This document shows, piece by piece, positions 9,420-58,505 of a DNA stretch of 64,000 nucleotides. This DNA comes from Actinomycetota bacterium (GTDB lineage Bacteria > Actinomycetota > Acidimicrobiia > Acidimicrobiales > Acidimicrobiaceae): NCBI GenBank assembly GCA_027320695.1, contig DAHVKW010000001.1, positions 10,993 to 74,992 on the forward strand. The letters are read 5' to 3'. The translations under genes were made by a program, and so were the position numbers. The notes under the pieces were generated by a model that was not told the origin of the DNA, did no database searches, and saw only the letters and a list, made by a program, of their open reading frames with translations. How positions within the stretch are numbered: the first letter of the stretch is position 1; the number at the start of each line of letters is the position of its first letter.

Positions 9420-9420
9420 G

Positions 9421-23198: not shown

Positions 23199-23211
23199 AG
23201 TTGAGGAATCG

Positions 23212-24375: not shown

Positions 24376-24393
24376 CGCGAGGGAGTTCAAAAA

Positions 24394-25140: not shown

Positions 25141-25213
25141 GCGACGCTTACCGAATGGATTTTCAACTACAACTCCTATAGCAAACGAATGTTAGCTTAG
25201 AAAGGCATACCAG

Positions 25214-25957: not shown

Positions 25958-25982
25958 GCGAGATAATAGTCCGCAGTTGGAG

Positions 25983-35358: not shown

Positions 35359-35456
35359 GTTGTTCTCCTGTCACCTTTGTGCTTTGAATTGGAAAATGTT
35401 GAAACTCTCTTTGGCGCCGGCACTCGCTTGGGCCTGGCTTGGATGCTTCGTTGCCG

Positions 35457-36623
35457 TCACGTTTGGTAAGCGCGCCTCAAGACCTCTGCTACTTCGGGTC
35501 GTGAAAATTCCGGGGGCAAACCTTCACCGTTTGCCAGTAGTTCGCGCACTTTAGTGCCTGACAGCGAAACGTGGAATTCGGGACCATGGGGGCACGTCCT
35601 CTTTGACGCTACCTGGCGACAGACTGAGCAAAAGAAACTGTGTTCGAACTTCAATATGTGAATATCGAGTTCTCCCTGAGGTAGCGTGTCGAAAATCTCC
35701 TGCGCTGCGTAGGTTGAGTAGTAATTTCCCACTCCCGCATGATCTCGCCCCACAATGAAGTGAGTGCATCCGTAGTTCTTTCTCGATATAGCATGCAAAA
35801 TCGCTTCTTTAGGTCCCGCATAGCGCATTGCAGCGGGGTATACACCCAGAAGGGTCCTGTCACTCGGGTAGTATCTTTCTAGCAGCACTGAGTATGCCTC
35901 CATTCGCGCCGGAACTGGCACATCGTCACTCTTTGTCTGGCCTACCAATGGGTTTAAGTAAAGACCGTCCACTACCTCAAGAGCGATTTTATGGAGATAT
36001 TCGTGGGCTCTGTGAACAGGATTCCGAGTCTGAAATGCGGCCACCGATTTCCAGTTTCTGTCAGCGAAGGCCTTCCTCGTCTGAACCGGGGTTAGATATT
36101 CGGGCCCCTCATAGCCACGGATTGTTTCATGGAGCGACAACATGCCCGTGAGAGCCCTATCGCCGCCGGAATAGAGAATTTTGACGCCGGGGTGGTCCTG
36201 CGATGCGGTCGCATAAATTTTTGACGCCTCCAATTCGAGGTCGAGTTTGAAGATTTCGTCGATTTCGAGAGTTGCTACGTGGTTCAGATCATGCGTCAGC
36301 TCGAGATACCTTGCCGTCGGGTCTATCTGGCCCGAGAGAAACTGGAAGACTATCGGAATCGGCCAGAGAGTTCCGTCGGTCAAATGCATCGATTCGATGA
36401 CCGAAAAATAGTCTGACTTGCCCATAAACGTTTCGAGCGGCGAGTATGCTCCGATGGCGATCATTTCGAGATCCGCATATTGCCGCGGCGTAAGCTCTAA
36501 GGACACCGCGCGAGACCGCTTCTGCCGAGGAACGATAGAAAGTCCCTTTAGAGTCCCGCCATGAGGAGCGTTGAGATCTTGTGGATTCATGAATGCATCT
36601 TCCCTTTTGTAGTGTGTACTCAA
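35457..36623 (-). CDS. sat: sulfate adenylyltransferase (homo-oligomeric ATP sulfurylase)
   Basis: AFQTRNPVHRAHEYL and GRDHAGVG motifs. Confidence 0.9.
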   Translation of the reverse strand: MSTHYKREDAFMNPQDLNAPHGGTLKGLSIVPRQKRSRAVSLELTPRQYADLEMIAIGAYSPLETFMGKSDYFSVIESMHLTDGTLWPIPIVFQFLSGQIDPTARYLELTHDLNHVATLEIDEIFKLDLELEASKIYATASQDHPGVKILYSGGDRALTGMLSLHETIRGYEGPEYLTPVQTRKAFADRNWKSVAAFQTRNPVHRAHEYLHKIALEVVDGLYLNPLVGQTKSDDVPVPARMEAYSVLLERYYPSDRTLLGVYPAAMRYAGPKEAILHAISRKNYGCTHFIVGRDHAGVGNYYSTYAAQEIFDTLPQGELDIHILKFEHSFFCSVCRQVASKRTCPHGPEFHVSLSGTKVRELLANGEGLPPEFSRPEVAEVLRRAYQT

Positions 36624-36687
36624 CCCGGCCGCGATAAGGTCGGCGAACTTCGCCTATCGAAGTAGCTGCCAGAATTCGTTAGCTCGA

Positions 36688-37323
36688 TCAGAGTGATCCC
36701 CATAGGCCGCATTCGGTTCTTCCCTGCCCATTGAACCGCCCGGAGCGCTGGTCGTCCCCAGGGCGAACCGCCTTTGTGCATGGCCAACACCCCATCGAGA
36801 GAAATCCGCTGAGGTACAGGGGATGGATTTCAAGATGTCGCGCTTTTGCGTATTTCTCCAGTTCCAGGCGAGAAAGGTTTACCAGAGGGTTGATGTGGGT
36901 AGGAGAACCCTCCTCGACAATCTGTAATTGCGACCTTCCTCGGGCACTGTCCCTGGTCCTGGCATTGATCAGGGCAGAGGGTTTGAGTATCGACAGGTAC
37001 TCGCTTAGCGGCGCGATCTTATTTATCTGGCAGCACTTGACGGGATCGGTCTCAAATAGAAATCCGCTTTCGGTATTAGACCGCAATTTCACGAATGAAA
37101 TGCGGCTATATCTCGCCTCCAAACTCTGCCAAAAGTGCAAGGTTTCTGGAAAATGGTAACCGGTGTCGACAAAGATCAGCTTTCCAGCAAATCCCGCTCG
37201 CGAGGCTATATCCAATAAGACCGTGCCGGAAAGATTCAGGCCCGTGGTCATGACTACGTCGTCGTAGTTTGCAAGTGACCAGCGGATGATTTCCTCGGCT
37301 TCGCTGGTGTCAATTCCGGTCAA
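36688..37323 (-). CDS. cysH: adenylyl-sulfate / phosphoadenylyl-sulfate reductase (thioredoxin), with the Fe-S cluster cysteine pattern
   Basis: It carries KCCQINKIAPL, GCWPCT and the C-terminal ECGLW. The CC...CxxC pattern is the one found in APS-type reductases. Confidence 0.88.
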   Translation of the reverse strand: MTGIDTSEAEEIIRWSLANYDDVVMTTGLNLSGTVLLDIASRAGFAGKLIFVDTGYHFPETLHFWQSLEARYSRISFVKLRSNTESGFLFETDPVKCCQINKIAPLSEYLSILKPSALINARTRDSARGRSQLQIVEEGSPTHINPLVNLSRLELEKYAKARHLEIHPLYLSGFLSMGCWPCTKAVRPGDDQRSGRFNGQGRTECGLWGSL

Positions 37324-37858
37324 CTATGCCCTCCTTTGCAAGGAGAGTGAGCACTTCTTCTACCGATCCGGAAATCTGCGTTCCATCAGTGTCCAAGCGA
37401 AGAGCCGGAAATTCAGGCCGTTCATATGGATCATCAACGCCGGTCAGGTTCTTTACTTCGCCCAGCTGCGCACGTCGGTAAAGGCCCTTGGTGTCCCGCC
37501 GCTCCAACACTGGCAAGGGCGCGTCAACAAAGATCTCAAATCCCCTCGCAAACGAACCAATGGCACCGTTTCGCGAGTCACGGTATGGGCTTATTGCGGA
37601 GACGAGCACGACGATGCCATTTTTGGCGAGAAGGTTTGCAACGAAGGCGATGCGTTGAACCTGGAGATCGCGATCTTTTTTCGAGAACCCAAGATCGCTC
37701 GATAGTGTTGCCCTCACCTCGTCGCCGTCAAGCAGCTCCGTTTTTACGCCGTGTTTCAATAGATCTGCTTGAACTTCTTTAGCTATCGTGGTTTTCCCTG
37801 CTCCGGAAAGTCCGGTGAACCAGAGAACCGGGGCGTGATCTGCCATAAAATCCTCCAT
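37310..37858 (-). CDS. cysC: adenylylsulfate kinase
   Basis: VLWFTGLSGAGKTTIA P-loop. 182 aa. It overlaps cysH by 14 nt. Confidence 0.9.
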   Translation of the reverse strand: MEDFMADHAPVLWFTGLSGAGKTTIAKEVQADLLKHGVKTELLDGDEVRATLSSDLGFSKKDRDLQVQRIAFVANLLAKNGIVVLVSAISPYRDSRNGAIGSFARGFEIFVDAPLPVLERRDTKGLYRRAQLGEVKNLTGVDDPYERPEFPALRLDTDGTQISGSVEEVLTLLAKEGIVDRN

Positions 37859-37887
37859 TAGAGTAATTATGAGTGTTCAGTACCTGG

Positions 37888-38610
37888 TCAGGAGTTAGAT
37901 TGGCTTCTTGACAATCGGCCATCTAACAAATTGTTAGTGAATGGGGTTACAGGCCAGGTCTCATGCTCGTCAGGTTGGACGCCGGGTGCGAATGCCAAGC
38001 CAAACGATGGAGTCCCATGGTCCTTGATGCTTGTGTGCGCCGGCTTTGTTCCTGCGAGCTGTCGAGACCTGACACGGTTTTCTAGGGCAGTCCAGTCGAA
38101 ATCAAATGTTGAGCGGCCGCTAGCCTTAAGCAGCGCTCTGGATGCGACAAAGGCATCGAGTACCAATAAGTCCTCAATACCGACCTGGCTCGCCAACCGC
38201 GTGCTGAGCCTCGAGGCAAAGGCTGGAGAGGCGCCATTGGTCGATACGGCAATTTCAATATGCGGATCGATTCGTCTTACGGCTACGTGGCAGAAACTCG
38301 ATGTTGGCTTTTCATCCAAAGTATTCAACAGAAACCCAAACTTTCTGGACTTCTTGAAGAGCCACTCGTTTATCGCTCTGTCTCTATCTGTGGCGATAAC
38401 CAGAAAGACGTCTCTGAAATTGCGGGCGCGCAGCTTCGGTTGGTAGGAGAAATTGACGCCCTCGAGCCGGGTTCCCAAGGTGGGGTCCGAGGTAGAAACA
38501 AGGGTCACCTTCGCTCCCTCGTTCGACAATGACTTGGATCTGGAGACTGCTTCAGAACCCGAGCCAACTATCAGCACAGTCCTACCCTTTAAGTTAAGGG
38601 AGATCATCAT
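37888..38610 (-). CDS. precorrin-2 dehydrogenase / sirohydrochlorin ferrochelatase (CysG N-domain / SirC type)
   Basis: LKGRTVLIVGSGSEAVSRSKSL is a Rossmann motif. 240 aa. It heads the sulfite reductase operon. Confidence 0.8.
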   Translation of the reverse strand: MMISLNLKGRTVLIVGSGSEAVSRSKSLSNEGAKVTLVSTSDPTLGTRLEGVNFSYQPKLRARNFRDVFLVIATDRDRAINEWLFKKSRKFGFLLNTLDEKPTSSFCHVAVRRIDPHIEIAVSTNGASPAFASRLSTRLASQVGIEDLLVLDAFVASRALLKASGRSTFDFDWTALENRVRSRQLAGTKPAHTSIKDHGTPSFGLAFAPGVQPDEHETWPVTPFTNNLLDGRLSRSQSNS

Positions 38611-40624: not shown

Positions 40625-42709
40625 CTAAATCATGCCGTGGAACGTCAAATGGAACAAGGATACGAATGCGTATGCCAATATTCCCGTGACAGCTGTCGCG
40701 ATAACGGCGAAAACCGCACGTTTCCTGAGGCTTTCAATGTCTTTGTTTACCATTGCATAGATAAATGTCATCAGGGGTACTCCGATCTTGAATCCAAGAA
40801 CAAGCGACGCTGCTGCCGTCCCGGCGAACCAGAGAAGACCAATGAACTCTCGAATGTTCTGATGACGGCGGTCCTTCCAGGATTCCGGCTCGTTATCGTG
40901 TTCCATTCGGGTCATCACCGCGACCGCTGAAGGTTCAGCTCCTGTCGGCTCGCTTGAAGTCTCGATTGCAGGCTCAGACACGTCGGCATTGTGGCCGGGC
41001 AAATCTAATCCATCGGTGTGTCTCGAATGCAGCCATACTGGAAAGTCCCTGCTCAAGCGATACAGAGAAGCAATCGCAGCGAGAATGCCGACTACCACTG
41101 GAATTTGCCCTGCCTGGGATGGATAGCCCAGACCAACGATGAAATAGGTAATAGAAAATGCAGCCATTACGGCGTCAAAGATCCATTCCATAAGTGGATG
41201 TTTCGCCGCCAAGCGCATAGCGGTGTTCTTGTTCTTGTGCCACCTCATGCCTGCGGAGAACACGAGATAGATTGCAACCAGCAAGAATACGTCGGCCAAT
41301 GGGCTCTTGGTTACAAAATTCCAGCCATAGAGCGAATATGTCAGGTGAACGTTATCGTCGAAGGTGCCACCTAGCACTAGTCCGATAGCGGCTGCAGCGA
41401 CGGAATAACCCAAATCCCGAACCACAACTCCAAGGATGCTGAATACAACCAGGAGGTAAATCCCCATTGTGGTATTAACGTCGGCAAAGCTGCCAAGTAC
41501 AGCTAGGGCGATTATGAAGGGAAACATGTAAGGACCCTTGATCCCGGTAATGCGAGAGAGCTGCGGTGCCAGCAAAAGCCCGACAACGCACGACAGCAGC
41601 CCTGCGATTGCCATTATCCACATCATCGAGTACGGAAGTGTAGGTGATCCCTTCAGAAGCGTCGGTCCGGGCTCAAGGCCAAGGATTGTCAGCGCGGCAA
41701 TAAAAATGACCATCCCGAGCCCCGATGGAAGCCCCAATGCTACCGCCGGAATTATTGATCCAACCTCTTTGGACAGCGACGAACCTTCCGCCGACATTAA
41801 TCCCTCTGGAACGCCCGTTCCAAACTCATCCCTGCGTCGGGAAACTCTTTGCCCCACGCCGTAGGAGATGAAGTTTGCGGTGAACCCACCTATTCCGGGG
41901 ATAAGACCCAGAACTGTTGCGATTATTGCCGATCGGGCCACATGATGCCACTTACTGAAGGTCTCAGCGATTCCTGCTCGGACCTGGGCCTGAAATCCTT
42001 TCCCAAGCTGCGCCTGGTCAAATGTCGCGACCGCCTTTTGGGACCCGTACATTTTAACCATTTGAGTTATCGCGAATACGCCCAGCGCAAATGGGACAAC
42101 CCCAATCCCGCTATAAAGAGTTGGCATTTGCATGGTGAACCGTTCGACACCGGTAACAGGATCAGATCCAACAAAGGAAAGCATCAAACCGAGAAGACCG
42201 GATATGAAGACCTTTGAGAGCGGTATATTTCCAGTTTGCGCAATCAGGACGATTGCCAGAATGATGATCGCCATGTACTCCGGCGGATGAAATATTGTCG
42301 CGAGTGGCCCTGCTAGCTGGATCAGGCCGATGAATATGATGCACGCTATCCAGCCACCCATCCAAGTAGATGTGGCTGAAATGGCAAGCGCTTTACCGGC
42401 TTCCCCTCTTTTGGCCATAGGAAATCCGTCCAGTGTGGTCGGGAAGGATTCCGGCGCTCCAGGCGAATTCAATACTATGGCTGTAATCGAGGCGGAAAAA
42501 TATACTCCGGACTGTGTAGCCAGCATCATTGAGACGGTTTGGAGAACGCTCATATGGTAGACGAACGGCAGCATAAGAGTAAGAACCAGGACAACGCCTA
42601 GTCCGGGCAGCATGCCAACGAACATGCCTATTGCCATGCCAAATAGCAGTAAGAGCAATACCGGGGCCGTCCCAAGATTGGTTAGCCCGGTAAATAAATG
42701 TGCGATCAT
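40625..42709 (-). CDS. tripartite tricarboxylate transporter permease, TctA fused to a TctB-like C-terminal 4-TM module
   Basis: 694 aa. The first roughly 500 aa are TctA-like (GMFVGMLPGLG..., GTVLGLIPGIGG-like repeats). Four further TM helices follow, interrupted by an acidic loop of about 50 aa. The start overlaps the upstream stop by 4 nt. Confidence 0.8.
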   Translation of the reverse strand: MIAHLFTGLTNLGTAPVLLLLLFGMAIGMFVGMLPGLGVVLVLTLMLPFVYHMSVLQTVSMMLATQSGVYFSASITAIVLNSPGAPESFPTTLDGFPMAKRGEAGKALAISATSTWMGGWIACIIFIGLIQLAGPLATIFHPPEYMAIIILAIVLIAQTGNIPLSKVFISGLLGLMLSFVGSDPVTGVERFTMQMPTLYSGIGVVPFALGVFAITQMVKMYGSQKAVATFDQAQLGKGFQAQVRAGIAETFSKWHHVARSAIIATVLGLIPGIGGFTANFISYGVGQRVSRRRDEFGTGVPEGLMSAEGSSLSKEVGSIIPAVALGLPSGLGMVIFIAALTILGLEPGPTLLKGSPTLPYSMMWIMAIAGLLSCVVGLLLAPQLSRITGIKGPYMFPFIIALAVLGSFADVNTTMGIYLLVVFSILGVVVRDLGYSVAAAAIGLVLGGTFDDNVHLTYSLYGWNFVTKSPLADVFLLVAIYLVFSAGMRWHKNKNTAMRLAAKHPLMEWIFDAVMAAFSITYFIVGLGYPSQAGQIPVVVGILAAIASLYRLSRDFPVWLHSRHTDGLDLPGHNADVSEPAIETSSEPTGAEPSAVAVMTRMEHDNEPESWKDRRHQNIREFIGLLWFAGTAAASLVLGFKIGVPLMTFIYAMVNKDIESLRKRAVFAVIATAVTGILAYAFVSLFHLTFHGMI

Positions 42710-44838
42710 CTAGTGTGTCCCCCTAGTGATTGGATAGTAGTTTTGAACCCATTTGCTGCATGTCTGTGATTTGGTAATTTATGATCTCGATCCAGCAGGC
42801 CTTTGTATAGCCTGAGAAGTTTTTCTGGTAGCGAACTGACATCTTCCAGTATCTCCACTTTTGCAGATGCTAACTCCGAAACATACTCCTCCCCAGCAGG
42901 ATCGACGGTAAGAACATACGGCTCTATGCCACCAGCGCTCAGTTCCCAGAGCGCCTTGTCACTATCGGCAAGCGCGTACGACTGTGACTCGGCCTCTCCG
43001 TAGCTTGTTCCGTAGTCAATGTCGAACGGTCGTCCGTCTGTGAGAATAAGAAGCACCTTGGTTTGCGATTGCAACTTCGAAAGCACCATCCCGCAGTGTC
43101 TTACTGCCGCACCAAGACGGGTCGCGTGAATTGGCTTGATTGCCGAGGCTCGGGAGACCACCATTCCAGACATTGGCTCGCTAAAGCCTTTGATTTCGCT
43201 GAGCACTACCCGTTCCCGTCCGGTTCCGGAAAAAGTCCAAACGCTAAAGGCGTCACCGACGGCATCCAGAGCGCTTGTACACAAAAGCGAACTTATCATC
43301 TCGATGTCGAGTATGCGTGGTGGCCGAAGCGTTGGGTTCGGCGAGATATCCCGCGGCAAGGCCGACTCAATCGGTTCGGCATCCTCCACTCTTTCCGCCG
43401 TGGATGCGCTTACATCAATAAGAAGCAGTACGGAAATGTCTCGCCGGGCCCGTCTCAAGTCTTGATATACGAAATCATTCGTTCCAGCACCTGTGCGAAA
43501 ATCTATCAGAGCACCGACCGCTGCATCGTAGTCGATGTCAGGCCCATCGGGAGCGCGCCGTTCCACTTCAAAGGCCTGAGATAACGGGACGTCCATTGCT
43601 CGCCTAAGGCGCCGTAACTCCTTCGCATATCGGATTTGGAGTACACTTCGTTCAAGAGCTCCCCCGCCAGGTGCTGATAGCTGAACGACCCTGCACCAGT
43701 CCCTGCGGTATTGGCCTTGGTACTTGTCCCATTCGGGATACAAGAACGTTTTGGCTCCCATTGGACGGAGCGAGCCCTCTTCATGGCTGTGGAGATGTCT
43801 CGAGACATCGTGGTGATCGTGAGGAAGGGGCTCAGGCGGTCCGGAAACAGCGCTTTTAGTGGTCAAAATCTCGCCGCCCTCTCCAACTTCAGATATGCTG
43901 CGCATATGGTAAAGGGCCTGATGGTCAGGCCCTGAAGCCGACGGAGCTCTGACTAGAAAGGATCCAATCGATCCGCGGTAGGAGATATCCGGCAGAGAAA
44001 TCAGCAGAACGTCGTCGCCTTCGAGCCGAACGCGGCCTTCCTCGGGCCATTGACTCGGCCACAAGGAACTGATCGACTTCGTAGAATCGGATGCGTCAAG
44101 AACCTTCGTGCCCGATTTGCCAAGTACGCCCAGATTCGGAAGCAAATTTACGACGCTATACATTTGAACGCAGGCGGCGGCAATATCCTCAACCGAAGCT
44201 TCGAGGAGATTTAGGGAGTCGTAAATCATTAACGTTTCCCTGGCTGCCTCTGCGATCGCCTCGGGCACCTCATTGATTCTCGGATCCATGCTTCGCCTGA
44301 GCGCGAATTCAACCACAGCTCCACGCGGGGGAAGCCCATTCCAATCTGGTCGAGAAAGAAGCTCCGAGCTGATTGCAGACTCTAGCTGATCTTTTAGCCC
44401 AGGATAAATGAGGGGCAAACGCGCATCAATTCTTGCGTCTTCAAGAGTCTCGAAAATTAACTTCGCCAGCGGAATGTCTGAAAAGGCGGCAAAAAAGACT
44501 TCAAGGTCGCTTGCCCCCTCGTCGCTTGGCGTCAGGGTATTCCGCAAGAGAGTATTAGCTACCCTTTCGATTTGGAAATCATACGTCCCCAATTGGAGAT
44601 GTAGGGAACGGTGAGCAAGCGCAAGCCGGTAAAAGCTGCGCTTTGAGATCCCAGCTGTTGCTCGTGGCAAACGGATGGTGGTGGGCGTGTCCGGGTAGTG
44701 CGCTGGGTCCTCGGGAGCATACTGCTCTATAGTCACATCGTTCCCGCTTAGCGCTCTAAAGTAGAGCTCAAAAGGACGAGTTTGGACGTCCTCGCCCACA
44801 ATTTCGCGATTAACTGTGTTGGCGACATTTGCCATCAT
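42706..44838 (-). CDS. CbbO/NorD-like protein with a C-terminal VWA domain
   Basis: 710 aa. The N-terminal region reads YRLALAHRSLHLQLGTYDF, as in NorD/CbbO. The VWA MIDAS motifs are LLIDVSAST and LILTDGRPFD. It overlaps both neighbours by 4 nt. Confidence 0.8.
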   Translation of the reverse strand: MMANVANTVNREIVGEDVQTRPFELYFRALSGNDVTIEQYAPEDPAHYPDTPTTIRLPRATAGISKRSFYRLALAHRSLHLQLGTYDFQIERVANTLLRNTLTPSDEGASDLEVFFAAFSDIPLAKLIFETLEDARIDARLPLIYPGLKDQLESAISSELLSRPDWNGLPPRGAVVEFALRRSMDPRINEVPEAIAEAARETLMIYDSLNLLEASVEDIAAACVQMYSVVNLLPNLGVLGKSGTKVLDASDSTKSISSLWPSQWPEEGRVRLEGDDVLLISLPDISYRGSIGSFLVRAPSASGPDHQALYHMRSISEVGEGGEILTTKSAVSGPPEPLPHDHHDVSRHLHSHEEGSLRPMGAKTFLYPEWDKYQGQYRRDWCRVVQLSAPGGGALERSVLQIRYAKELRRLRRAMDVPLSQAFEVERRAPDGPDIDYDAAVGALIDFRTGAGTNDFVYQDLRRARRDISVLLLIDVSASTAERVEDAEPIESALPRDISPNPTLRPPRILDIEMISSLLCTSALDAVGDAFSVWTFSGTGRERVVLSEIKGFSEPMSGMVVSRASAIKPIHATRLGAAVRHCGMVLSKLQSQTKVLLILTDGRPFDIDYGTSYGEAESQSYALADSDKALWELSAGGIEPYVLTVDPAGEEYVSELASAKVEILEDVSSLPEKLLRLYKGLLDRDHKLPNHRHAANGFKTTIQSLGGHTR

Positions 44839-45686
44839 GTATCGCTGTCGCCAAAGTACGCGGTAATGACCTCAACTATCGCTTCCCGGGAAACCGAGTC
44901 GTCCGTGACAACGTCAGCAATCGCAGCTATGCAGGCTCTTTGAGGAGAAACTCCCCTTGCGATCAGACGTGAAGCGTATACCAGAAGCCGAGTGCTGGGT
45001 CCTTCGATTAGGTAGTCGTTATTAAGGTTTCTCAAGTTCGCCGCCAGCGCGCTCAAACGCTCTGCCACAGCCGGTTCAGCACCGCCTTCGTAAATCAATA
45101 TCTCGCTCTCGAGCTCAACTGTCGGATAGCTGAACTCAATTGCTACGAACCTCTGGCGAGTTGAGTGCTTGAGATCCTTGATGCTTGTCTGGTAGCCAGG
45201 ATTGTATGAAACTACCAGCAAAAAGGAAGGGTGCGCTTCGATCAGCGTGTCGAGTTTAGCTATCGGCAGGAAGCGGCGGTGATCGGTGAGGGAATGAACT
45301 ACCACCATAACGTCCTTGCGGGCCTCCACCACCTCGTCGAGGTAGCAGATTCCGCCGTTTCTCACCGTATGGGTGAGCGGACCGTCGACCCAGCGGGTTC
45401 CATCTTTTTCAAGAATGAATCTTCCCAGAAGGTCTGAGGCGCTGAGGTCCTCCTGACAGCTCACCGTCGTCAGACTGACTTTCTCGCCCGCTTCATTGTT
45501 GGAAAGCCGTGAGGCCATGTACTCCAGAAAACGAGTTTTCCCGGTACCAGTCGGACCTTTGAGCAAGACAGGAGTCCTGTCAGCGTAGGCCGCTTCGAAT
45601 AACCCCACTTCGTCGCCGACCGCCAGGTAGAATGGCTGATCGACGTGAGAGCTACCGATTGAGCCTGGGCTATTTTCTTTGATCAT
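44835..45686 (-). CDS. CbbQ/NirQ/NorQ/GpvN family AAA+ ATPase
   Basis: 283 aa. Walker A LLKGPTGTGKT and Walker B ICYLDEVVEA. The length and C-terminal region are typical of CbbQ. Confidence 0.88.
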   Translation of the reverse strand: MIKENSPGSIGSSHVDQPFYLAVGDEVGLFEAAYADRTPVLLKGPTGTGKTRFLEYMASRLSNNEAGEKVSLTTVSCQEDLSASDLLGRFILEKDGTRWVDGPLTHTVRNGGICYLDEVVEARKDVMVVVHSLTDHRRFLPIAKLDTLIEAHPSFLLVVSYNPGYQTSIKDLKHSTRQRFVAIEFSYPTVELESEILIYEGGAEPAVAERLSALAANLRNLNNDYLIEGPSTRLLVYASRLIARGVSPQRACIAAIADVVTDDSVSREAIVEVITAYFGDSDT

Positions 45687-47179
45687 GAGAGTCGATCATC
45701 CACATTTGTAGCAAATTCGCCGTTTTGGTCCCGCTCAATCCAGGAGATAGGGTCATGGGCGTAGTCCTTGAAATAGTCGCCAGGGTAGTTGATTCCAGGC
45801 ACGGCTGGAATCCAATCGTATTCAAGAAGGCTCGTGTTCCCCAGAGCAAGCGCAAGCCTGACCACATCTGGTTCATCAAGCACCTTCAAACGCCCCTTGT
45901 CTATCAAAGAATACCACTCGCCCGTACTGCGCTTTTTGATTTGGTAGGTGGCGAATACGTTATGCACATGAGGAAAATGCATGGTTGGCAGATGGTTCTC
46001 CTTGGCATATTTCAAGAAGGTCTGATCCCAGTGCTCCGCGCCAAACCCAAAGTGTATTACCCCAGCTTGAGCCCTTTCGGGAAGGTTGGTCCAGGAGTCG
46101 TTGTAGTTCCACAATGTCTCGATCTGGCGATAGCTCTTTGGATTGGTCCCAATCGACGCGTCGTTGAAGTAGTGCCAACCAGGGTACGGAAATCCCGGAT
46201 AGTGGTAGTCCTTGTACTTCTCTACGACTTCACGCCATAGCTCGCCGTACCTGCCTCCGCCAACGATCTTGCTGATCTGGCCAGACTCAATATGAACTTC
46301 GATGTGCGGGAAATATCCGGTGTGATTGCTGACTCCGGCAACGACCCCGTTCAGGGTCTGGTAGAGAGAATCAGCCTGCTGTATGAATGTTTCTACGGGA
46401 TGGCCAAACCGTATTCCCTGAATTGTTGATCCTATGATGTGCCCGGATTGGAACGCACCTTGGACCCAAAGAGCAGCTTGCTCTTCTGTCACCTTCCAGC
46501 CAATGTCGGTACCTTCAGGACTGGTTATCCGTATCTCCGAGGCATCGCTGAACGCCTGGACCACCTTTAGGTCAACTGTGCGCCAAATTTCGTCCGGATA
46601 GCTATTGGCCCGTGAAATGAAATCTTCATAAGTGGCGTACATCCAATTATTGCGAACTCTTTGGCCAGCGGCGCGCTTCCAGTGGCGCCTGCCGGCCTCG
46701 CCAGCTAACACGGCCGTATATCCTGGGCGATCCTCCAAATAATTCTTTAGAGTCGCCGCGGCGACGTTGAATTCAACTCCGCTTTCGACCATGGGCGGCA
46801 AACGGTCAGTTATTTCTCGCCAACCTTCAGCAGCGCTATAGGTTTTGACCTCCATCCCAAGATCAGTGACATCAATTCTGTCCACGCTTTCAGCGCCTTC
46901 TTCAAGAAGTGCCCTGCGGACTGCCTCGTAGACGGCGTCATTTTGGTGAGGATAAGTGATGATCAGGATCTTGTCTCCGGGAATAGTGGGTCCTAGCGCC
47001 GCTCGGCCATAGCGCCTCCTTGCCACGGATCTCGCCAAGGGCATCAATTCTTCGACATCGTTGCACCGTTCCTGACGAAGATAGAACGGGTGGCGTGGCG
47101 CAGGATAGGACATCCCCGGCAGCGCAGCTGGAGTACCAGGAGCGAATTCTTCAAGTTTGCGTTGATCTTTAAGTGACAT
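45683..47179 (-). CDS. hypothetical enzyme, probably aminopeptidase-T (M29) / NicX-like fold
   Basis: The 498-aa ORF is certain. The family call is by eye only: GDKILIITYP...AVRRALLEEGAE, IRITSPEGTDIGWKV, IEVHIESGQISKIVGGG, GVIHFGFG and HFPHVH resemble the M29/NicX architecture. Confidence 0.5.
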   Translation of the reverse strand: MSLKDQRKLEEFAPGTPAALPGMSYPAPRHPFYLRQERCNDVEELMPLARSVARRRYGRAALGPTIPGDKILIITYPHQNDAVYEAVRRALLEEGAESVDRIDVTDLGMEVKTYSAAEGWREITDRLPPMVESGVEFNVAAATLKNYLEDRPGYTAVLAGEAGRRHWKRAAGQRVRNNWMYATYEDFISRANSYPDEIWRTVDLKVVQAFSDASEIRITSPEGTDIGWKVTEEQAALWVQGAFQSGHIIGSTIQGIRFGHPVETFIQQADSLYQTLNGVVAGVSNHTGYFPHIEVHIESGQISKIVGGGRYGELWREVVEKYKDYHYPGFPYPGWHYFNDASIGTNPKSYRQIETLWNYNDSWTNLPERAQAGVIHFGFGAEHWDQTFLKYAKENHLPTMHFPHVHNVFATYQIKKRSTGEWYSLIDKGRLKVLDEPDVVRLALALGNTSLLEYDWIPAVPGINYPGDYFKDYAHDPISWIERDQNGEFATNVDDRLS

Positions 47180-47562: not shown

Positions 47563-47946
47563 TCATTTGTCACATGCGTACTCAGTAATGGCTCCTTCCC
47601 TTACGATAATTCGGGCGGATTCGCCAATGGCAGCCGCCGAGGCTACTGGATAATCCGAAGGGTTGGCAAATCGTGGAATCGCCACTTCGGCCGCGAGATT
47701 GTCCATTGCTAGGTTGACGGGATCGTTCGACGCCAAGGCGCGAAATTCAGCGAGCGCCTTCTTGTCGCGGCTGCCCACTAAAATGCCTCCGCGAAGTAGG
47801 CAGTTCCTAGCGATACTTGGCTTCGCCGCTAGGGCAGGGACTGCGGGCATCGGCTCGCCTTCTGCAACCTCTTGATCCATCTCCTGCTCTTCATTATTGC
47901 GATGACTCCAGGGGAAGGTATCTTCCTCTGCTCCGGTGAGGATCAA
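47563..47946 (-). CDS. hypothetical small protein (start uncertain)
   Basis: 127-aa ORF in operon position after the TPP enzyme, with an acidic N-terminus. I recognise no family. Alternative ATG starts lie further in. Confidence 0.45.
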   Translation of the reverse strand: MILTGAEEDTFPWSHRNNEEQEMDQEVAEGEPMPAVPALAAKPSIARNCLLRGGILVGSRDKKALAEFRALASNDPVNLAMDNLAAEVAIPRFANPSDYPVASAAAIGESARIIVREGAITEYACDK

Positions 47947-47986: not shown

Positions 47987-49789
47987 TCAACGAGTTGTAT
48001 GCACGTGGACAACAGCCACGTCGCCGCGCAAGGCTTGATTGAGCCCGGATCTTAGCGCGCCCATGAGATCGTTGGGATCGTCGATTGGACCCGCGGTCCA
48101 GCATCCGTAGGATTTGGCCAGGGCGGCCAGATCCACCTGAGGATCGCTGATTCGCATGCCAATCCAGGAGTTCTCCGGCGGACGGCCCCGGTGCCGTGCA
48201 ACTCGCGCCTGGTGGGGCTCATCGTTATAGAACGAACTGTTGTCGTTTATCACCATGAGCATAGGTATCCCGTAATGCACCGCAGTCCAAAGGGCTGAGG
48301 AAGCCATCAGGAAGTCTCCGTCACCTATGATGCCCACGCCGAGTTTGCCTTGGTCCATAGCTGCAAGGGCGCCACCGACCATCGCGCCGGGACCATATCC
48401 GACGCCTCCACCCCCGGAGTCGCCAAAATATTGGCCGGCCCCTGTGAACTTCCAGATCCCTTCCGGCCAGCTTCTTGTATTTCTAAGGAGCAACAGGCAG
48501 TCGGTGTCTTTGACCGTTTGCCACAGTTCAGCGACGAGCCGGTGCTGGGATATTGGCATATCATTCCAATGGGCCCCAATATTTGCTTCCCGCAATTCTC
48601 TTGCCGCACTGATTCTTTCTGCTATCAGCTGATTTCGTCCGGCAACTTCGCTCCCGCGAGCCATTATCCGTACCGCGCTTAGCAGTTCCTTGAGTCCTTG
48701 CACTGGATCGCAGAGCAGTTGTATGCTGCGCGGCTTAATCATGCCAGATGAGTTGCTCCACGACCTTGCCCCAAAGTCGCCCATGGAAAGATCAATGATA
48801 CTGCTGGTATTTGCGGAGGTTCCATCATCTGGCATAGAACGGTCCATCAAGGATGGAAGGTCCACAACGTCGACTGAGAGTATCGTGTCGGTATCTGCCA
48901 ATACGCTGGGGTCCAGATTGCAGTTATTTGGATGGTCAGTGGGAAAAGCCACTGTGTTGCGGTCATCCATATAGGCCGCTCCGAGAAGCTCAACCAACTC
49001 AACCAGCAAATCCGTCGCCTGCCTGTTTCGGCCGATCCGACCACCGATAATTGCCGGCAATCGTGAATTGCAGAGCATCTCCGCCGCCTTGTGGACAGCC
49101 TCTAGGTCAGGCGCTATCGGAGGATGGGGTTGAAAAAGACCGATTTCCAAGCCTTCGACGGAATCAAGCGATACTTCCTCTTCCTGGAGAGCACAGTCGA
49201 GCGAGACGTAGGTAGGCCCGTATGGAGCGGAATTCGCGATTTGATGCGCCTTAATGAGGCTGAAAACGAAAGCCGAAGAAGGGCTTGGCTCATCATCCCA
49301 CTTGACGTAGGACCGGATCAGCTCGGCTTGAGTATCCGCAGAATGGATCCAATCTATGGGCCTTCGCTTGAAACGGTCTCTAGGTCCGCTACCACCGAGA
49401 ATAACCAACGGAACCTGATCCAGAAATGCATCGTAAACAGCCATTGATGCATGCATGAGCCCCACAAGATCATGAATTGCGGCTGCCGCAGGCTGGCCGC
49501 TTACCTTGGCATAACCATGCGCAAGAGAAACAGCGATTTCCTCGTGCAAACACAGAAGGAGCTTTGGATCTTCATTACCGTGGTAATTCACAATCGAATC
49601 ATGAAGTCCCCTGAAGCTCGACCCTGGATTAATTGCGATATACCTGTAACCGAGTTCGCCCAGCAGATCCACGGTAGCATCGGATCCGTGGGTTGGAATT
49701 TTCTTAAATGAATCCAGGGCTATCGGATTCTCAGTTGTCGCCATCCGCCATTTGTTTGACTTTACATCAGATTCTTCGCCGCTCATCAC
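47987..49789 (-). CDS. thiamine pyrophosphate-dependent enzyme (acetolactate synthase / benzoylformate decarboxylase superfamily)
   Basis: The TPP motif is IIGDGDFLM...VINDNSSFYN. The N-terminal PYR domain reads YIAINPGSSFRGLHDS...LHEEIAVSLAHGYA. Confidence 0.85.
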   Translation of the reverse strand: MMSGEESDVKSNKWRMATTENPIALDSFKKIPTHGSDATVDLLGELGYRYIAINPGSSFRGLHDSIVNYHGNEDPKLLLCLHEEIAVSLAHGYAKVSGQPAAAAIHDLVGLMHASMAVYDAFLDQVPLVILGGSGPRDRFKRRPIDWIHSADTQAELIRSYVKWDDEPSPSSAFVFSLIKAHQIANSAPYGPTYVSLDCALQEEEVSLDSVEGLEIGLFQPHPPIAPDLEAVHKAAEMLCNSRLPAIIGGRIGRNRQATDLLVELVELLGAAYMDDRNTVAFPTDHPNNCNLDPSVLADTDTILSVDVVDLPSLMDRSMPDDGTSANTSSIIDLSMGDFGARSWSNSSGMIKPRSIQLLCDPVQGLKELLSAVRIMARGSEVAGRNQLIAERISAARELREANIGAHWNDMPISQHRLVAELWQTVKDTDCLLLLRNTRSWPEGIWKFTGAGQYFGDSGGGGVGYGPGAMVGGALAAMDQGKLGVGIIGDGDFLMASSALWTAVHYGIPMLMVINDNSSFYNDEPHQARVARHRGRPPENSWIGMRISDPQVDLAALAKSYGCWTAGPIDDPNDLMGALRSGLNQALRGDVAVVHVHTTR

Positions 49790-49817: not shown

Positions 49818-50729
49818 CTAAATTAATGCAGCCGCAAACAAGTCTTCTGACGTCAGTTTCTCCGGATTCAATGCCAACTCTTTCCTATCGGACAGCGCCT
49901 TCAATGGCAAACGGCGCAACTGGCGTCCATCCCATCCAGCACAGGCTTTAGCGAGTTCGCGGTGCATTTCAGCATTCTTGGCCAGCGGCTTTATTGCTGG
50001 CCAGATTTCGGACAGCTCGTCAAGCGACAGAGCAATGATTTTGGAGGCTGTCTCCACGTCAGGAATCTCCAGCGAAAGAACAAGATCTGCGCGCGACGTG
50101 AACGCCTCGTCAATCGCTCCGGGAAAGTTTGTAGTAGCCACCACCAATACGTTGGGACACCGCTTCATCAGTCTGTCCATGCCTTCAAGCACGGCGTCGC
50201 TCGCCCTGTGGACATCAATGGGGTTCGCTTCGAAAGATGCGGATGAACGTCGTACGGCAAAACTCTCCACTTCGTCAATAACTACGACGAGATGGGGGTA
50301 TCGAAGTGACAATTCTGGAAGCGAGTTGTCGAGCAGCCTCGCAACGTTTCTCTGGCTTTCTCCGAGCATTTCGCTGGGAAGGACGTGCGGATTTACCTCT
50401 ATGAGACAGGTATCCCCTTTTTCGGCCAGTTCTTTGGAAACAATTTCAGCCAGGCCAGTGGCCAACGTGGTCTTACCGGTCCCTGGAGGGCCGGACAATA
50501 TTACGAGCCGTTGCAACGCGCCAGGCAGCGCATAAAACTCCTTTTCGTGTGCCAATGCAAGGAGGGCATGCGAAAGCAGGCGAGATTTGATCCTCTCGTC
50601 GACAATGATCCGGTCCCAGTTGCGGGTACCGCCCTCGTCCGGCAATATCCGTTGCGCCGAAACTCCATGTATCGGCGCGGAATGGTGATGGTGGTCTACG
50701 GCCAAGTTGGCCGCCTTACCTCGGGCCAC
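49818..50729 (-). CDS. TRIP13/Pch2-like AAA+ ATPase
   Basis: Walker A SGPPGTGKTT and Walker B VVVIDEVES. TTNFPGAIDEAFTSRADLVLSLEIPD and the C-terminal GRQLRRLP closely recall the TRIP13 motifs IDVAFVDRADIKQYIGPP and GRVLRKLP, as I remember them. Confidence 0.6.
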   Translation of the reverse strand: MARGKAANLAVDHHHHSAPIHGVSAQRILPDEGGTRNWDRIIVDERIKSRLLSHALLALAHEKEFYALPGALQRLVILSGPPGTGKTTLATGLAEIVSKELAEKGDTCLIEVNPHVLPSEMLGESQRNVARLLDNSLPELSLRYPHLVVVIDEVESFAVRRSSASFEANPIDVHRASDAVLEGMDRLMKRCPNVLVVATTNFPGAIDEAFTSRADLVLSLEIPDVETASKIIALSLDELSEIWPAIKPLAKNAEMHRELAKACAGWDGRQLRRLPLKALSDRKELALNPEKLTSEDLFAAALI

Positions 50730-51763
50730 ACGATCGTGCTGAGATCTCCAGCTTGGGCATTCCTTATCCGGTCTGGTGGTTCTTCGAATAGCACCAATGG
50801 ATCACAGAGAGCGCGCATCGTTTCGAGAACGGTGTCGAACATGTGGATCCGAACGACTCGGGCACTGTCATCTGGGTTGTCGTTTATGTGCTGGTGCCAC
50901 AGGAAATGATCAACGATTATCAAATCGCCTTTTTTCCAGGGGTGGTTCTCACCGTTATCGGGTTCCGTACCAAGAAATGAATGACCGGTTCCATCTACCA
51001 CATAGAGCCAGGCTTCGCCGGGATGACGATGCATTGACTGCGCACGACCCGGCCCGATTTCAAACATTGCCATGGTTATCCCCGATGCTTGGTATCCCGT
51101 GGCTTTGTCGAGCAGGAATGTGGTGCGGGTACCCCGGGGAGTTTGCAAAAACTCGAGTTCATCCCAACTGGTGTGGAGGCGTCCACTTCTGCGCGCCTCT
51201 TGTTCAGCCGCCAAGCGGCGTACGCGCCTGGAATATGGATCGTTTCCGGACACGCCTTGAGTGAACTGCGGACGCGGAGGAAGTTGCGCAAAAGGCGTGT
51301 CGCCACCGTCTTCAAGAATTGCGAAACCAAGGATCTCCATAAACGGCTCGCTTGAGAAGGTCATATATCTCGCAGTTACTTCACCTTCATTGCCATGCCT
51401 GTGCCAGGCCCATGCGGGGAGATGCAGACTGTCCCCCGGACCCCAGTTGATGCGAACTCCATCGATTTCAGTCCATCCAAAACCGGCTACGCAAAACATC
51501 ATGGCATCCCATGAATGGCGGTGGACCTTCGAAGTCACACCACTTGGTATCTCATGTGCAGCTCCATCCATGGTTCGTGTTGGCTTGTCTGCGTCGGGGC
51601 CGATATAGGCTCCCGAAACAAGTCCCCGGTCAGTTTGATGCATTTCGACATCTTCAAGCTTTATTACGGTTCGCTGATTCAAGCGCCAATCTTCTAAAAA
51701 TTGCGCGCGGCGCTTCTTTTGGACTTCATAATGGCTCGTTGCAGTTCTCGTCACATTGGTCAT
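50696..51763 (-). CDS. gentisate 1,2-dioxygenase-like bicupin
   Basis: ORF 50696..51877; the preferred ATG is at 51763. KVHRHSWDAMMFCVAGFGWTEIDGVRINWGPGDSLHLPAWAWHRHGNEG matches the GDO-type cupin motif. A second cupin carries HRHPGEAWLYVVDGTG. Confidence 0.75.
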   Translation of the reverse strand: MTNVTRTATSHYEVQKKRRAQFLEDWRLNQRTVIKLEDVEMHQTDRGLVSGAYIGPDADKPTRTMDGAAHEIPSGVTSKVHRHSWDAMMFCVAGFGWTEIDGVRINWGPGDSLHLPAWAWHRHGNEGEVTARYMTFSSEPFMEILGFAILEDGGDTPFAQLPPRPQFTQGVSGNDPYSRRVRRLAAEQEARRSGRLHTSWDELEFLQTPRGTRTTFLLDKATGYQASGITMAMFEIGPGRAQSMHRHPGEAWLYVVDGTGHSFLGTEPDNGENHPWKKGDLIIVDHFLWHQHINDNPDDSARVVRIHMFDTVLETMRALCDPLVLFEEPPDRIRNAQAGDLSTIVWPEVRRPTWP

Positions 51764-52245: not shown

Positions 52246-53004
52246 GTGGATGTGGATAATAAGAAGAAGCCGGATTCATCCAATCTGGATCATGGCATGA
52301 ACCAGATGTTTAGTCCAATAACCACAGTTCGAATCTCTTCAATAATTGTTGATCGAGTGAGAGCCCTAATTCGGGAAGGCAAGCTCAAGCCAGGTGACAG
52401 GCTCCCTACTGAAAGGGAGCTATGCAGCTCCTTTGGCATTGGAAGGGCAACCGTAAGAGATGCGCTTCGTATTCTCGAGACAATTGGGTTGATCGAAGTG
52501 AGGGTGGGCTCACGCGGTGGAGCCTTTGTGACGGCGCCAACTTCGGTGCAAATTGGTGCTGGCCTTAATGACATGCTTGCAGCTGCGGCAATATCAGCTG
52601 CCGAAGTGCGCGAAGCACGCCTCACCTTTGAACTCGGCCTCATCGATCTAATTTGCGAAAGAATCACCGACGAGGATCTAGCATCGCTGACCGATATCTG
52701 TGATCGATCAAAGGCCGCCTTGGAAGACGACAACTACACTCTCAACCTGTCTCTGGAATTTCACACGGCCCTCGCCCATTGTGCCCACAACAGGGCCCTT
52801 GACATGATTGTTGAAACCTTCCAGGTTTCTCTTGAGATGTTCGAGCGTCCCGTCAAGCAGGGTGGACCCACTCACGAGACACCTGGGGTCCAGGAACACA
52901 TTGACATAGTTGAGGCAATAAAATCCAAGAATGCAACCCTGGCTAAGGCCATTATGGAACTCCACCGGAGCAGGACACCGAAACTCCTGAGGTTGATCGC
53001 TTAG
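52246..53004 (+). CDS. GntR/FadR family transcriptional regulator (paralogue of 30280..31062)
   Basis: GDRLPTERELCSSFGIGRATVRDALRILETIGLIEVRVG. It is divergent from the dioxygenase operon. Confidence 0.85.
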   Translation: MDVDNKKKPDSSNLDHGMNQMFSPITTVRISSIIVDRVRALIREGKLKPGDRLPTERELCSSFGIGRATVRDALRILETIGLIEVRVGSRGGAFVTAPTSVQIGAGLNDMLAAAAISAAEVREARLTFELGLIDLICERITDEDLASLTDICDRSKAALEDDNYTLNLSLEFHTALAHCAHNRALDMIVETFQVSLEMFERPVKQGGPTHETPGVQEHIDIVEAIKSKNATLAKAIMELHRSRTPKLLRLIA

Positions 53005-57389: not shown

Positions 57390-58505
57390 CTAACTTCCAT
57401 TTACGTAAGTAGAGATTGCCGATGAGTTTTTGACGGCTGTGACTACCTCGCTCTGGATGGTTGCTCCCGGAACAAAGTTCAGAGGAACACCTTCTTTCTC
57501 AGCTTGGGCTATCGTTGACGATTCAGCTACCACCTTGGCCAGAGCGTCACGAAGAACCGCCAGCCTCGCAGCTGGGATTCCGGGAGGCCCGGCAAGATCA
57601 TAAGTCAGCGCGCCCAGAGCCAAGGCTTCCTTCACTGCGCCCGACTGAGTTGCGCTAAGGTTTGCCGAACTCAATGCAGAGCTCAATGTTACGGAACCCT
57701 TCACTGCGGACTGTAGGTTTGCAAGCGTAGGTTGGAACGTTACAAGAAGCGCTTTGGCTTGACCGCCATCGAGCATGGAACGCATAGGTGGAAGGTTTTC
57801 AAACAAATATTGGCCATCTCCCGCCAGGAAACCTTGCTTCAGGGTCGACGTTGATGTGAATCCGGTTACAAAGGTGTGCGGGATGTTGAACGCCCCAAGA
57901 ACCACCCTATTGAACATGTCACCAGTACCATTGCGGACATCTACCACCTTGATGGGTGTCTTGATGGTAAGCAGCTGGCTGAAGCTCGTCACACCGGATT
58001 TGGGTGAAGTCAGGAAGACGCTGGGCGAGGTACCTGGCTGTCCAACATAGCTAAGCTTGGATAGGTCAAAATTTTGGCCAGGCTTCTTTTCAACGAGACT
58101 CGCCAGATCACCGCCAGTGTTTACCATTCCGAGCGTCAATCCGTCAGCAGATGCAGCCGCCATTTGGTTGGTACCAACAACTGTTCCGCCACCGTTGACG
58201 TTCTCGACGTTTACGGTTGCCCCGAGCGCCGCAGACAGACCAGGTGCGATAAGTCTTGCATACTGGTCGTAGCCACCTCCTGGATTGTCAGGAGCAATTA
58301 GGGTGATCGTCTTACCCTTGAAAAACGCAGCCGCGGCGGCGCTGGCCGAGGTTGTGGCCGTTGTTCCGCCGGTTGTTCCGGTGGAGGAGGAACTAGATCC
58401 ACAAGCAGCCAAAACCATGCCGGCGGTAGCTGCCGTAATGCCAATAAGTGCTGATTTATTCCTAGTTAATTTATTGTTTCTAACAACTGACCTTCTAAAT
58501 TTCAC
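57390..58505 (-). CDS. tctC: tripartite tricarboxylate transporter substrate-binding lipoprotein (TctC/Bug family)
   Basis: Lipobox LAACGSSS followed by a Ser/Thr/Gly-rich linker. PDNPGGGYDQYARL is the Bug-family motif. Confidence 0.85.
   Translation of the reverse strand: MKFRRSVVRNNKLTRNKSALIGITAATAGMVLAACGSSSSSTGTTGGTTATTSASAAAAAFFKGKTITLIAPDNPGGGYDQYARLIAPGLSAALGATVNVENVNGGGTVVGTNQMAAASADGLTLGMVNTGGDLASLVEKKPGQNFDLSKLSYVGQPGTSPSVFLTSPKSGVTSFSQLLTIKTPIKVVDVRNGTGDMFNRVVLGAFNIPHTFVTGFTSTSTLKQGFLAGDGQYLFENLPPMRSMLDGGQAKALLVTFQPTLANLQSAVKGSVTLSSALSSANLSATQSGAVKEALALGALTYDLAGPPGIPAARLAVLRDALAKVVAESSTIAQAEKEGVPLNFVPGATIQSEVVTAVKNSSAISTYVNGS

Follow-up and report, generated by a model that had tools for sequence, protein, structure and literature searches.

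The 64,000-nucleotide stretch of Acidimicrobiaceae DNA that we analysed (the window) carries, on its minus strand, a gene for an AAA+ ATPase (49818..50729) and, directly 5' of it, a gene for a bicupin (50696..51763). Read from GTG 50729, the ATPase has 303 residues, and its gene overlaps the stop codon (TAG, 50696-50698) of the bicupin gene. A gene for a thiamine pyrophosphate (TPP)-dependent enzyme (47987..49789, minus) begins 28 nt past the ATPase stop. These coordinates agree with a first-pass annotation of the same DNA, which had noted the 303-residue frame, its two Walker motifs, the overlap with a dioxygenase-like gene and the spacing to the TPP gene. The true start of the ATPase is probably TTG 50705 rather than GTG 50729, because GAGGTAAGG lies just before this codon and several homologues share the resulting N-terminus, MAVDHHHHS; the protein would then count 295 residues, and the overlap with the bicupin gene would be 10 nt. 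Translation of the ATPase is probably coupled to that of the bicupin immediately upstream, whose most likely start is ATG 51763, giving 355 residues as in its homologues.

The ATPase consists of a single classical AAA+ module in which all motifs could be located and are invariant. Walker A (GPPGTGKT, 50469..50492, minus) spans residues 80-87 and is unchanged in both ATPase alignments (A1 and A2), while Walker B (VVVIDE, 50271..50288, minus) spans residues 148-153, with D152 and E153 invariant. Sensor 1 (TTN, residues 199-201), one Arg finger (SRAD, residues 212-215) and a sensor-2 Arg in the motif GWDGR, part of GWDGRQLRRLP (49923..49937, minus; residues 265-269), complete the set. The pore loop 1 region (EMLGES, 50355..50372, minus) has Met-Leu-Gly instead of the aromatic-hydrophobic-Gly pattern; MLGESQRN is invariant among the close-clade ATPases of alignment A1, wider relatives show ELLGES or DLLGET, relatives from the antiphage signalling system that is based on cyclic oligonucleotides (CBASS) show ALG or SHG, and eukaryotic TRIP13 has KWF. 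The pore loop 2 region (50208..50261, minus) ends, according to the alignment, in an invariant NPxDVH(174)RA. At the N-terminus lies a tract of four histidines (DHHHHS, 50682..50693, minus; residues 13-16, or 5-8 counted from the TTG).

Profile, sequence and fold comparisons all place this ATPase in the Trip13/Pch2 family, as the first-pass annotation had proposed. The PADLOC TRIP13 model PDLC00915 matched residues 20-301 with an E-value of 2.3e-89 (298 bits), and the next families reached about 1e-15; this model gives 264-322 bits for the window protein together with its relatives, and 387-393 bits for genuine CBASS Trip13 proteins. In a phmmer search against PDB sequences the top match was C. 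elegans PCH-2 (4xgu, 3.6e-29), followed by TRIP13 (6lk0, 5vq9), above Cdc48. A Foldseek search with an AlphaFold2 (AF2) model of the protein (pLDDT, the predicted local distance difference test score, of 83) returned PCH-2/TRIP13 structures at ranks 1-13, Trip13 of E. coli MS115-1 at ranks 14-17, and spastin, katanin and Vps4 later. Two segments noted earlier as characteristic of TRIP13 indeed align to the human protein (6lk0), TTNFPGAIDEAFTSRADL with TSNITEKIDVAFVDRADI and GWDGRQLRRLP with GLSGRVLRKLP, and AAA_lid_TRIP13_C gave a weak match at residues 252-280. Genuine CBASS Trip13 proteins are 38-44% identical to the window ATPase. Given these matches, we assign the ATPase to the Trip13/Pch2 family as a true member, nearest to the two-HORMA type. 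The alternative of an ordinary classical AAA+ ATPase (Cdc48/FtsH/Vps4-like) lacking any particular affinity to Trip13 would fit the Pfam result, in which mainly the generic AAA domain scored above cut-off (best match PF00004, 2.4e-19; AAA_5 was marginal, with E 9e-5 and 22.9 bits where the cut-off is 22), and Cdc48 scores little below TRIP13 in the PDB sequence search. This reading is already contradicted, and is highly improbable, in view of the full-length TRIP13 profile match (E 2e-89, the next family reaching about 1e-15), the 13 top fold matches to PCH-2/TRIP13 followed by E. coli Trip13, and the identity to genuine CBASS proteins. With Pfam, no CbbQ_C match was found in the window ATPase; the CbbQ-type gene of the window is a separate open reading frame (ORF; 44835-45686).

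In a rough tree built by neighbour joining from representatives of 50%-identity clusters, ATPases linked to bicupins stand beside the CBASS clade, the latter having the pore loop xxGKSQ, and eukaryotic TRIP13 falls outside both. The bicupin-linked group is large, with thousands of matching 90%-identity clusters, and some of its members already bear the pipeline annotation 'pachytene checkpoint protein 2'. Compared with the two-HORMA type III CBASS Trip13 (Cap6), for example that of P. aeruginosa ATCC27853, which matches the same PADLOC model, the window protein shares a length of about 300 residues, the absence of a eukaryote-type N-domain, a single Arg finger with a sensor-2 Arg, the motif NPxDVHRATDA after pore loop 2, and a presumed client with an alternating-Thr N-terminal tail. 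Two-HORMA Pch2 has been reported to have all motifs of eukaryotic TRIP13 (Ye et al., 10.1101/694695). Likewise, the window ATPase has the AAA+ core motifs and the lid motif G-x-x-GR-x-LR-x-LP of eukaryotic TRIP13/PCH-2 (4xgu, 5vq9, 6f0x), but it lacks the N-terminal adaptor-binding domain of about 100-130 residues, has Met-Leu in place of the pore-loop Trp-Phe, and its proposed client is a non-HORMA protein.

Conservation of the bicupin-ATPase pair

The ATPase gene is strictly paired with the bicupin gene. In contig look-ups of homologues ranging from 91% down to about 40% identity, including Chloroflexi-type relatives that are about 40% identical, a bicupin of 348-355 residues with two Cupin_2 domains was encoded directly 5' of the ATPase in 11 of 11 cases. 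A genome scan restricted to one genome per species, considering relatives of at least 49% identity with upstream DNA available (our loci L001-L026, about 24 after deduplication), found an orthologous bicupin immediately upstream in every one, and the same held for the more divergent locus L029, making 27 loci. Carriers of the pair include Streptomyces, Amycolatopsis, Kibdelosporangium, Mycolicibacterium wolinskyi, Acidimicrobiia, Acidobacteriota and Burkholderiales. When we searched in reverse, starting from the bicupin, the ATPase lay directly downstream in 65 of the 73 metagenome loci with enough downstream DNA. Between phyla, bicupins share 58-73% identity and the ATPases 50-56%, the bicupin being the better conserved of the two. 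The bicupin orthologues without an adjacent ATPase are those of L132, L133, L136, L140, L143, L145, L146 and L159; in L132 and L145 a TPP enzyme gene directly follows the bicupin.

The remaining neighbours of the pair all vary between loci. We distinguished four layouts: that of the window, with a xanthine dehydrogenase (XDH)-like hydroxylase, a GntR regulator, the pair and the TPP enzyme; that of actinomycetes, with a solute-binding protein, the pair, an isochorismatase-like hydrolase, a second bicupin and an ATP-binding cassette (ABC) importer; that of Proteobacteria and Acidobacteriota, with NicO and solute-binding protein genes divergent from the pair and TctC after it; and that of distant relatives, with a luciferase-like monooxygenase, the pair, and an M20 peptidase or a major facilitator superfamily (MFS) transporter. 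Neighbourhood mapping thus showed that homologues do adjoin metabolic genes, in varied catabolic contexts, and it confirmed the catabolic operon setting proposed for the window. The description of the ATPase as an orphan was refuted, since the bicupin, which the first-pass annotation had listed as a gentisate-dioxygenase-like gene, is its strictly conserved partner, and it is the pair, not the wider operon, that is conserved. The TPP enzyme was considered as a partner of the ATPase and rejected because its gene is found in a minority of the related loci; it is an operon neighbour in the window lineage only, outside the conserved pair.

The defining partners of a CBASS Trip13 were tested for and are absent from the ORFs scanned, which places the ATPase outside CBASS. 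Pfam and PADLOC models were run on the neighbouring ORFs and on about 6,300 residues of the remaining window ORFs, concatenated for PADLOC; the other ORFs in 18880-29516 were scanned with Pfam only, and the ORFs at 9388-10836, 12690-16293, 17263-18477, 19730-20497, 25983-27149 and 33610-37858 lay outside all of these scans. In the scanned window ORFs no HORMA, CD-NTase (nucleotidyltransferase resembling cGAS/DncV)/cyclase or effector model was matched, in line with what had been noted before, and PADLOC gave just generic helix-turn-helix (HTH) or methyltransferase-like matches on the concatenated ORFs. Nor was a HORMA gene found in any of about 100 related loci, where the bicupin holds the partner position. 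The Pfam bacHORMA and PADLOC HORMA models do match neighbours of the ATPase in two CBASS loci (L028 and L030). Genuine CBASS examples among the fetched loci come from Sphingomonas fennica (L028), Bradyrhizobium (L030), a plasmid of Polaromonas JS666 (L173) and a plasmid of Rhodococcus opacus (L174), and follow the order Trip13, HORMA, HORMA and SMODS cyclase, often with a pair of HTH and ImmA/IrrE peptidase genes upstream. The window system differs from these in having a bicupin upstream in place of HORMA, CD-NTase and effector genes (within the scanned ORFs), in having a chromosomal, catabolic setting instead of a mobile or defensive one, in its pore loop (MLGESQRN versus xxGKSQ) and in the His-rich extensions of several of its lineages. 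As HORMA candidates we examined the 127-residue ORF at 47563-47946, a 498-residue ORF and the bicupin itself, none of which had a HORMA or cyclase match with Pfam or PADLOC. The first of these, a TTG-initiated ORF on the minus strand that had been singled out earlier for structure prediction, matched no family in Pfam, NCBIfam or PADLOC and, by tblastn, nothing in the closest syntenic loci; it is therefore perhaps not a gene.

The first-pass annotation had considered two origins for the ATPase, a remnant of a defence module captured by the operon or a protein that remodels or activates a metabolic enzyme, and the evidence favours the latter. That the gene is what remains of a type III CBASS operon, captured or in decay and functionless in its present setting, would be consistent with the fact that the nearest characterised relatives are CBASS Trip13 proteins. 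We nevertheless regard it as already contradicted and very improbable: comparison of the window with its 91%-identical relative gave ratios of nonsynonymous to synonymous substitution (dN/dS) of 0.044 (ATPase) and 0.032 (bicupin; the comparison with L003 was unusable owing to an indel), the catalytic motifs are all invariant, no HORMA, cyclase or effector was matched in the scanned ORFs, and the pair is kept across phyla at about 100 loci, in Actinomycetota, Acidobacteriota, Burkholderiales and Chloroflexi-type contigs. An assembly artefact as the source of the pairing is also excluded, since the pair recurs in isolates and metagenome-assembled genomes that are independent of one another. Among plasmids, which we searched for relatives in an annotated catabolic context, 12 matches were found, all below 45% identity, and the three neighbourhoods inspected were all CBASS operons.

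The partner protein itself has the fold of gentisate and salicylate 1,2-dioxygenases. Its best Foldseek matches were 3bu7, 2phd and 2d40, and Pfam recognised Cupin_2 twice. The N-terminal cupin carries the metal motifs HRHSWDA ... WAWHRHGN (51389..51523, minus), in which H81, H83, D86 and H121 are invariant, and the C-terminal cupin carries the nearly invariant HRHPGEAW ... DHFLWHQHIN (50882..51031, minus; L007 has HSN for HRH). The bicupin thus shares with those dioxygenases the fold and the HxH...H metal motif of the N-terminal barrel, and differs from them in its low identity (18-21%), in having metal motifs in both barrels and in a Thr-alternating N-terminal tail that is unique to its family. 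With NCBIfam it remained below the equivalog cut-offs (TIGR02272, 53.7 versus 442 bits; the MabB model, 72 versus 650 bits). We attempted to name a substrate and abandoned the attempt, the NCBIfam matches being weak and the gene contexts identifying no reaction. These contexts (XDH-like hydroxylase, isochorismatase-like hydrolase, amidohydrolases, luciferase-like monooxygenase, M20 peptidase, and TctC or ABC uptake) hint at the catabolism of N-heterocycles or aromatic acids.

That the bicupin matches no characterised dioxygenase at equivalog level could also mean that it is no enzyme at all, but a ligand-sensing switch that replaces HORMA and toggles a regulator or pathway enzyme, with the ATPase resetting it as part of a signalling module. 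The known job of the Trip13 family is to reset conformational switches, and GntR or IclR regulators are frequent neighbours of the pair, both of which would suit such a module. However, both cupin metal sites are conserved as in enzymes, the neighbourhoods are catabolic clusters rich in enzymes and transporters, and no fixed third partner is present to serve as the target of the switch. We therefore consider a switch improbable and the bicupin to be more plausibly an enzyme, the client of the ATPase.

The alternating-Thr tail of the bicupin

The bicupin begins with a tail of alternating Thr residues (MTNVTRTATSHY, 51728..51763, minus), which we propose as a tag for engagement by the ATPase pore. 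Exactly ten residues precede an invariant His11-Tyr12 in 103 of 118 bicupins. Within this tail the share of proteins with Thr or Ser is 85% at position 3, 97% at position 5 and 100% at position 7, and His is found at position 11 in 100% and at position 13 in 70%. The first ten residues are predicted to be disordered (AF2 pLDDT below 50), yet they are among the most conserved features of the protein, and their pattern is kept in the most distant pairs, in two of them in a shifted register. The co-occurring second bicupin paralogue has no Thr tail.

The conservation of the tail appears to co-vary with the presence of the ATPase. Ser or Thr at positions 5 and 7 was kept in all 88 bicupins with an ATPase downstream, and 3 of the 6 distinct bicupins without one have a degraded or truncated tail (MTSRATPQVTHY, MTTTHY and MASPATTKV); a hand calculation, uncorrected for shared ancestry, gave p ~1.5e-4 for the association of tail loss with ATPase absence.

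A similar pattern is found in HORMA proteins. All four HORMA2 proteins of the fetched CBASS loci begin with alternating Thr (for example MGTSTFTFTRTHTATF and MSTSTSTTTYTRTHTATH, compared with MTNVTRTATSHY and MSTKTHTLTTHYH in bicupins). The HORMA2 genes with these long alternating-Thr starts lie at 9318-9821 in L028, at about 9340 in L030, at 7373-7873 in L173 and at 7303-7809 in L174. In E. coli Pch2, a ladder of His173 residues from pore loop 2 hydrogen-bonds every second residue (Ser/Thr) of the HORMA N-terminus (Ye et al., 10.1101/694695), and the HORMA2 starts extend the Ser/Thr periodicity that these authors described for one-HORMA operons to two-HORMA operons. Bicupin-linked and CBASS ATPases have in common an invariant His in NPxDVHRATDA, just past pore loop 2; in the window protein this residue, His174, is located at +88 from the Walker A lysine, and His173 of E. 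coli Pch2 at +86.

A proposed bicupin activase and its rivals

Given the pairing and the shared tail motif, we hypothesized that the ATPase is an intact Trip13/Pch2-family remodeller that is paired with a bicupin instead of HORMA and pulls on its tail to reset the enzyme, plausibly with respect to its metal, a reading that we favour with some reserve. From sequence patterns we infer the following course. The ATPase hexamer would dock on the bicupin, and its central pore would take hold of the disordered tail (T-x-T-x-T ... H-Y) at the N-terminus, in the way that CBASS Trip13 holds the HORMA N-terminus with its alternating Ser/Thr. ATP-powered pulling might then draw out the N-terminal helix and unfold the N-terminal barrel in part, and this would reset the bicupin, most plausibly by opening its buried metal site. 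The correct metal could be inserted at this point, or an oxidised or wrong metal exchanged, so that the ATPase would act as a bicupin activase or metallochaperone. The four-histidine tract, and the long His-rich tails of other lineages, may serve as a site of metal hand-off. The metal-loading purpose is the least certain step, the support for a role of metal being partial. Cupins reportedly can trap and bury their metal upon folding, as established in the study of MncA, whose PDB entry (2vqa) is among the fold matches of the bicupin. If cupins bury metal when they fold, an unfoldase that opens the barrel would be a sensible route to metal loading, exchange or repair.

The clues to a metal come from the ATPase termini and from neighbouring genes. 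DHHHH is present at the N-terminus in the Acidimicrobiia clade of the window, in 19 of the 20 closest homologues; in the clade of Proteobacteria and Acidobacteriota, a C-terminal tail of about 55 residues (...ELMHDHDHGHG..HTHTHQHDDD) contains 6-17 His, and C-terminal tails with 6-17 His occur in about 85 of the next 100 homologues. A further protein, that of L172, has HGHGHDH at its N-terminus. His-rich extensions of the ATPase have thus arisen independently in three lineages and at different termini. In addition, genes for a NicO/HoxN-family Ni/Co transporter and a solute-binding protein adjoin the pair in at least 15 loci of the clade with C-terminal His tails. These tails (L005-L018, L151-L167) are preceded by a conserved non-His linker, GGVEWAGGxAPxxRELFPDVPxEL, whose conservation suggests a docking element.

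The same evidence has to be weighed against a broader alternative, in which the ATPase remodels the bicupin in a general way, removing a tightly bound inhibitor or dead-end product or controlling the assembly and disassembly of oligomers, and the His tracts are incidental. Such a role would resemble that of Rubisco activase, which pulls the N-terminus of RbcL. It fits the pairing and the tail equally well, roughly half of the lineages lack His-rich tails and NicO, and the N-terminal helix of the bicupin, modelled by AF2 with low confidence, could be an oligomer contact. The independent gains of His-rich extensions at different termini in three lineages, as well as the Ni/Co-transporter neighbours, would however need another explanation. 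We consider general remodelling without a metal role unlikely on balance and still a serious rival, because two lineages have neither His tails nor NicO and eight bicupin loci have no adjacent ATPase.

Several observations weigh against the activase hypothesis or narrow it. Eight of the 73 bicupin loci have no adjacent ATPase, and half of these keep the tail. The proposed interaction between the ATPase and the bicupin rests on gene order and sequence patterns, and the presumed equivalence of His174 with His173 of E. coli Pch2 on spacing, not on a structural alignment. The ATPase has no aromatic residue in pore loop 1, the family tree is a rough neighbour-joining one, and with NCBIfam the bicupin scores far under the thresholds of known dioxygenases. 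The actinomycete and Chloroflexi-type lineages, about half of the loci, have no His-rich tails, and NicO was found in one lineage only; since both features are lineage-limited, metal loading may not be general, or it may be independent of His tails and NicO.

In its proposed function, the window ATPase resembles two groups of known factors and is a member of neither. With the AAA+ activases (Rca, CbbX, CbbQ/CbbO, NorQ/NorD) it shares a gene conserved beside that of its proposed client, a metabolic enzyme; those activases remodel an adjacent metalloenzyme by pulling a terminal peptide or by metal insertion, and the concept is the same, with reactivation here being proposed only. They differ in belonging to MoxR/AAA_5 or Rca-type clades and in acting on other clients, and the window ATPase has no VWA partner. 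The His-rich NTPase metallochaperones (HypB, UreE/UreG, CooJ/CooC, COG0523) have a His-rich tract on or beside an NTPase that adjoins a metalloenzyme; such tracts occur in some lineages of the bicupin-linked ATPases and are missing from others, and a Ni/Co transporter neighbours some of the pair loci. However, the metallochaperones are G3E or MinD-type GTPases or ATPases or small metal carriers and no unfoldases, whereas the window protein is a classical AAA+ ATPase.

TRIP13/Pch2 is seen as devoted to the remodelling of HORMA proteins, in eukaryotic checkpoints as well as in bacterial CBASS immunity, and descriptions of bacterial Trip13 are confined to operons with HORMA and CD-NTase genes (Ye et al. 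10.1101/694695; Tromer et al. PMC6601020). Our search of the full-text literature on TRIP13/Pch2 together with cupin, bicupin or dioxygenase returned nothing relevant and no account of the pair. The pairing, like the tail motif in common with HORMA proteins, is solid and would surprise a specialist; the mechanism is a proposal. More tentatively, and with considerable doubt, one may see here the first non-HORMA client system of TRIP13/Pch2: a widespread bicupin activase in which a HORMA-like alternating-Thr tag has been grafted on a metalloenzyme, whose barrel would be partly unfolded to load, exchange or repair a kinetically trapped metal, and whose bicupin-coupled clade could equal or exceed the CBASS-coupled clade.

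If the bicupin does have this role, the client range of the TRIP13 family would be broader, an alternating Ser/Thr tag for pore engagement could move between unrelated folds, and cupin dioxygenases, which are widely used in the catabolism of aromatic compounds and N-heterocycles, would have a new class of ATP-driven activase or metal-loading factor. This would also bear on the history of the HORMA-Trip13 module. In practice, such bicupins may fail in heterologous expression without the co-encoded ATPase, and finders of defence systems may flag these ATPases as TRIP13, given that the PADLOC model matches at E ~1e-90.

Other genes in the window

The operon of the pair also holds another putative activase set (42706-47179, minus). 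This trio, which is conserved in L003, comprises a 498-residue NicX-like protein, so labelled after a faint PF26233 match of the L003 orthologue, a CbbQ/NorQ-type MoxR AAA+ protein (AAA_5 and CbbQ_C) and a 710-residue NorD-like VWA protein (PDB 9qhd, E 6e-27); the CbbQ/NorQ-NorD pair spans 42706-45686. As a CbbQ/NorQ-type AAA+ protein and a NorD-like protein adjoin the NicX-like protein, ATP-driven activation of a metalloenzyme may occur twice in the pathway.

The window encodes a second bicupin of 333 residues (31963-32964, plus; Cupin_2 and Cupin_1), without a Thr tail. In 34 related loci the ATPase pair is accompanied by a second bicupin, with which this protein shares 63% identity. Next to its gene in the window lies a GntR paralogue (30280-31062, plus), the other GntR regulator being located at 52246-53004. 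A fused TctA-TctB transporter of 694 residues (40625-42709, minus) stands at the end of the operon, and a weak TctC-like binding protein is encoded upstream (57390-58505, minus); in other phyla, too, TctC genes often lie next to the pair.

At 18880-24375 (plus) we found a protocatechuate/beta-ketoadipate-type set, consisting of a CoA transferase, two Dioxygenase_C subunits, a Lyase_1 cycloisomerase-like protein and an alpha/beta-hydrolase-CMD fusion, and the window is therefore an aromatic-catabolism island. Two class II aldolase paralogues follow in tandem (24394-25140 and 25214-25957, plus); they are 71% identical and share a block of about 80 residues of almost 100% identity between diverged flanks, a pattern that looks like gene conversion. 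Finally, a candidate sulfate-assimilation set at 33610-38610 (minus), recognised by visual inspection and from its likeness to genes that Pfam annotates in L004, would comprise sulfite reductase, ATP sulfurylase, phosphoadenosine phosphosulfate (PAPS) reductase and adenosine phosphosulfate (APS) kinase, and the same set neighbours the bicupin-ATPase pair in L004.

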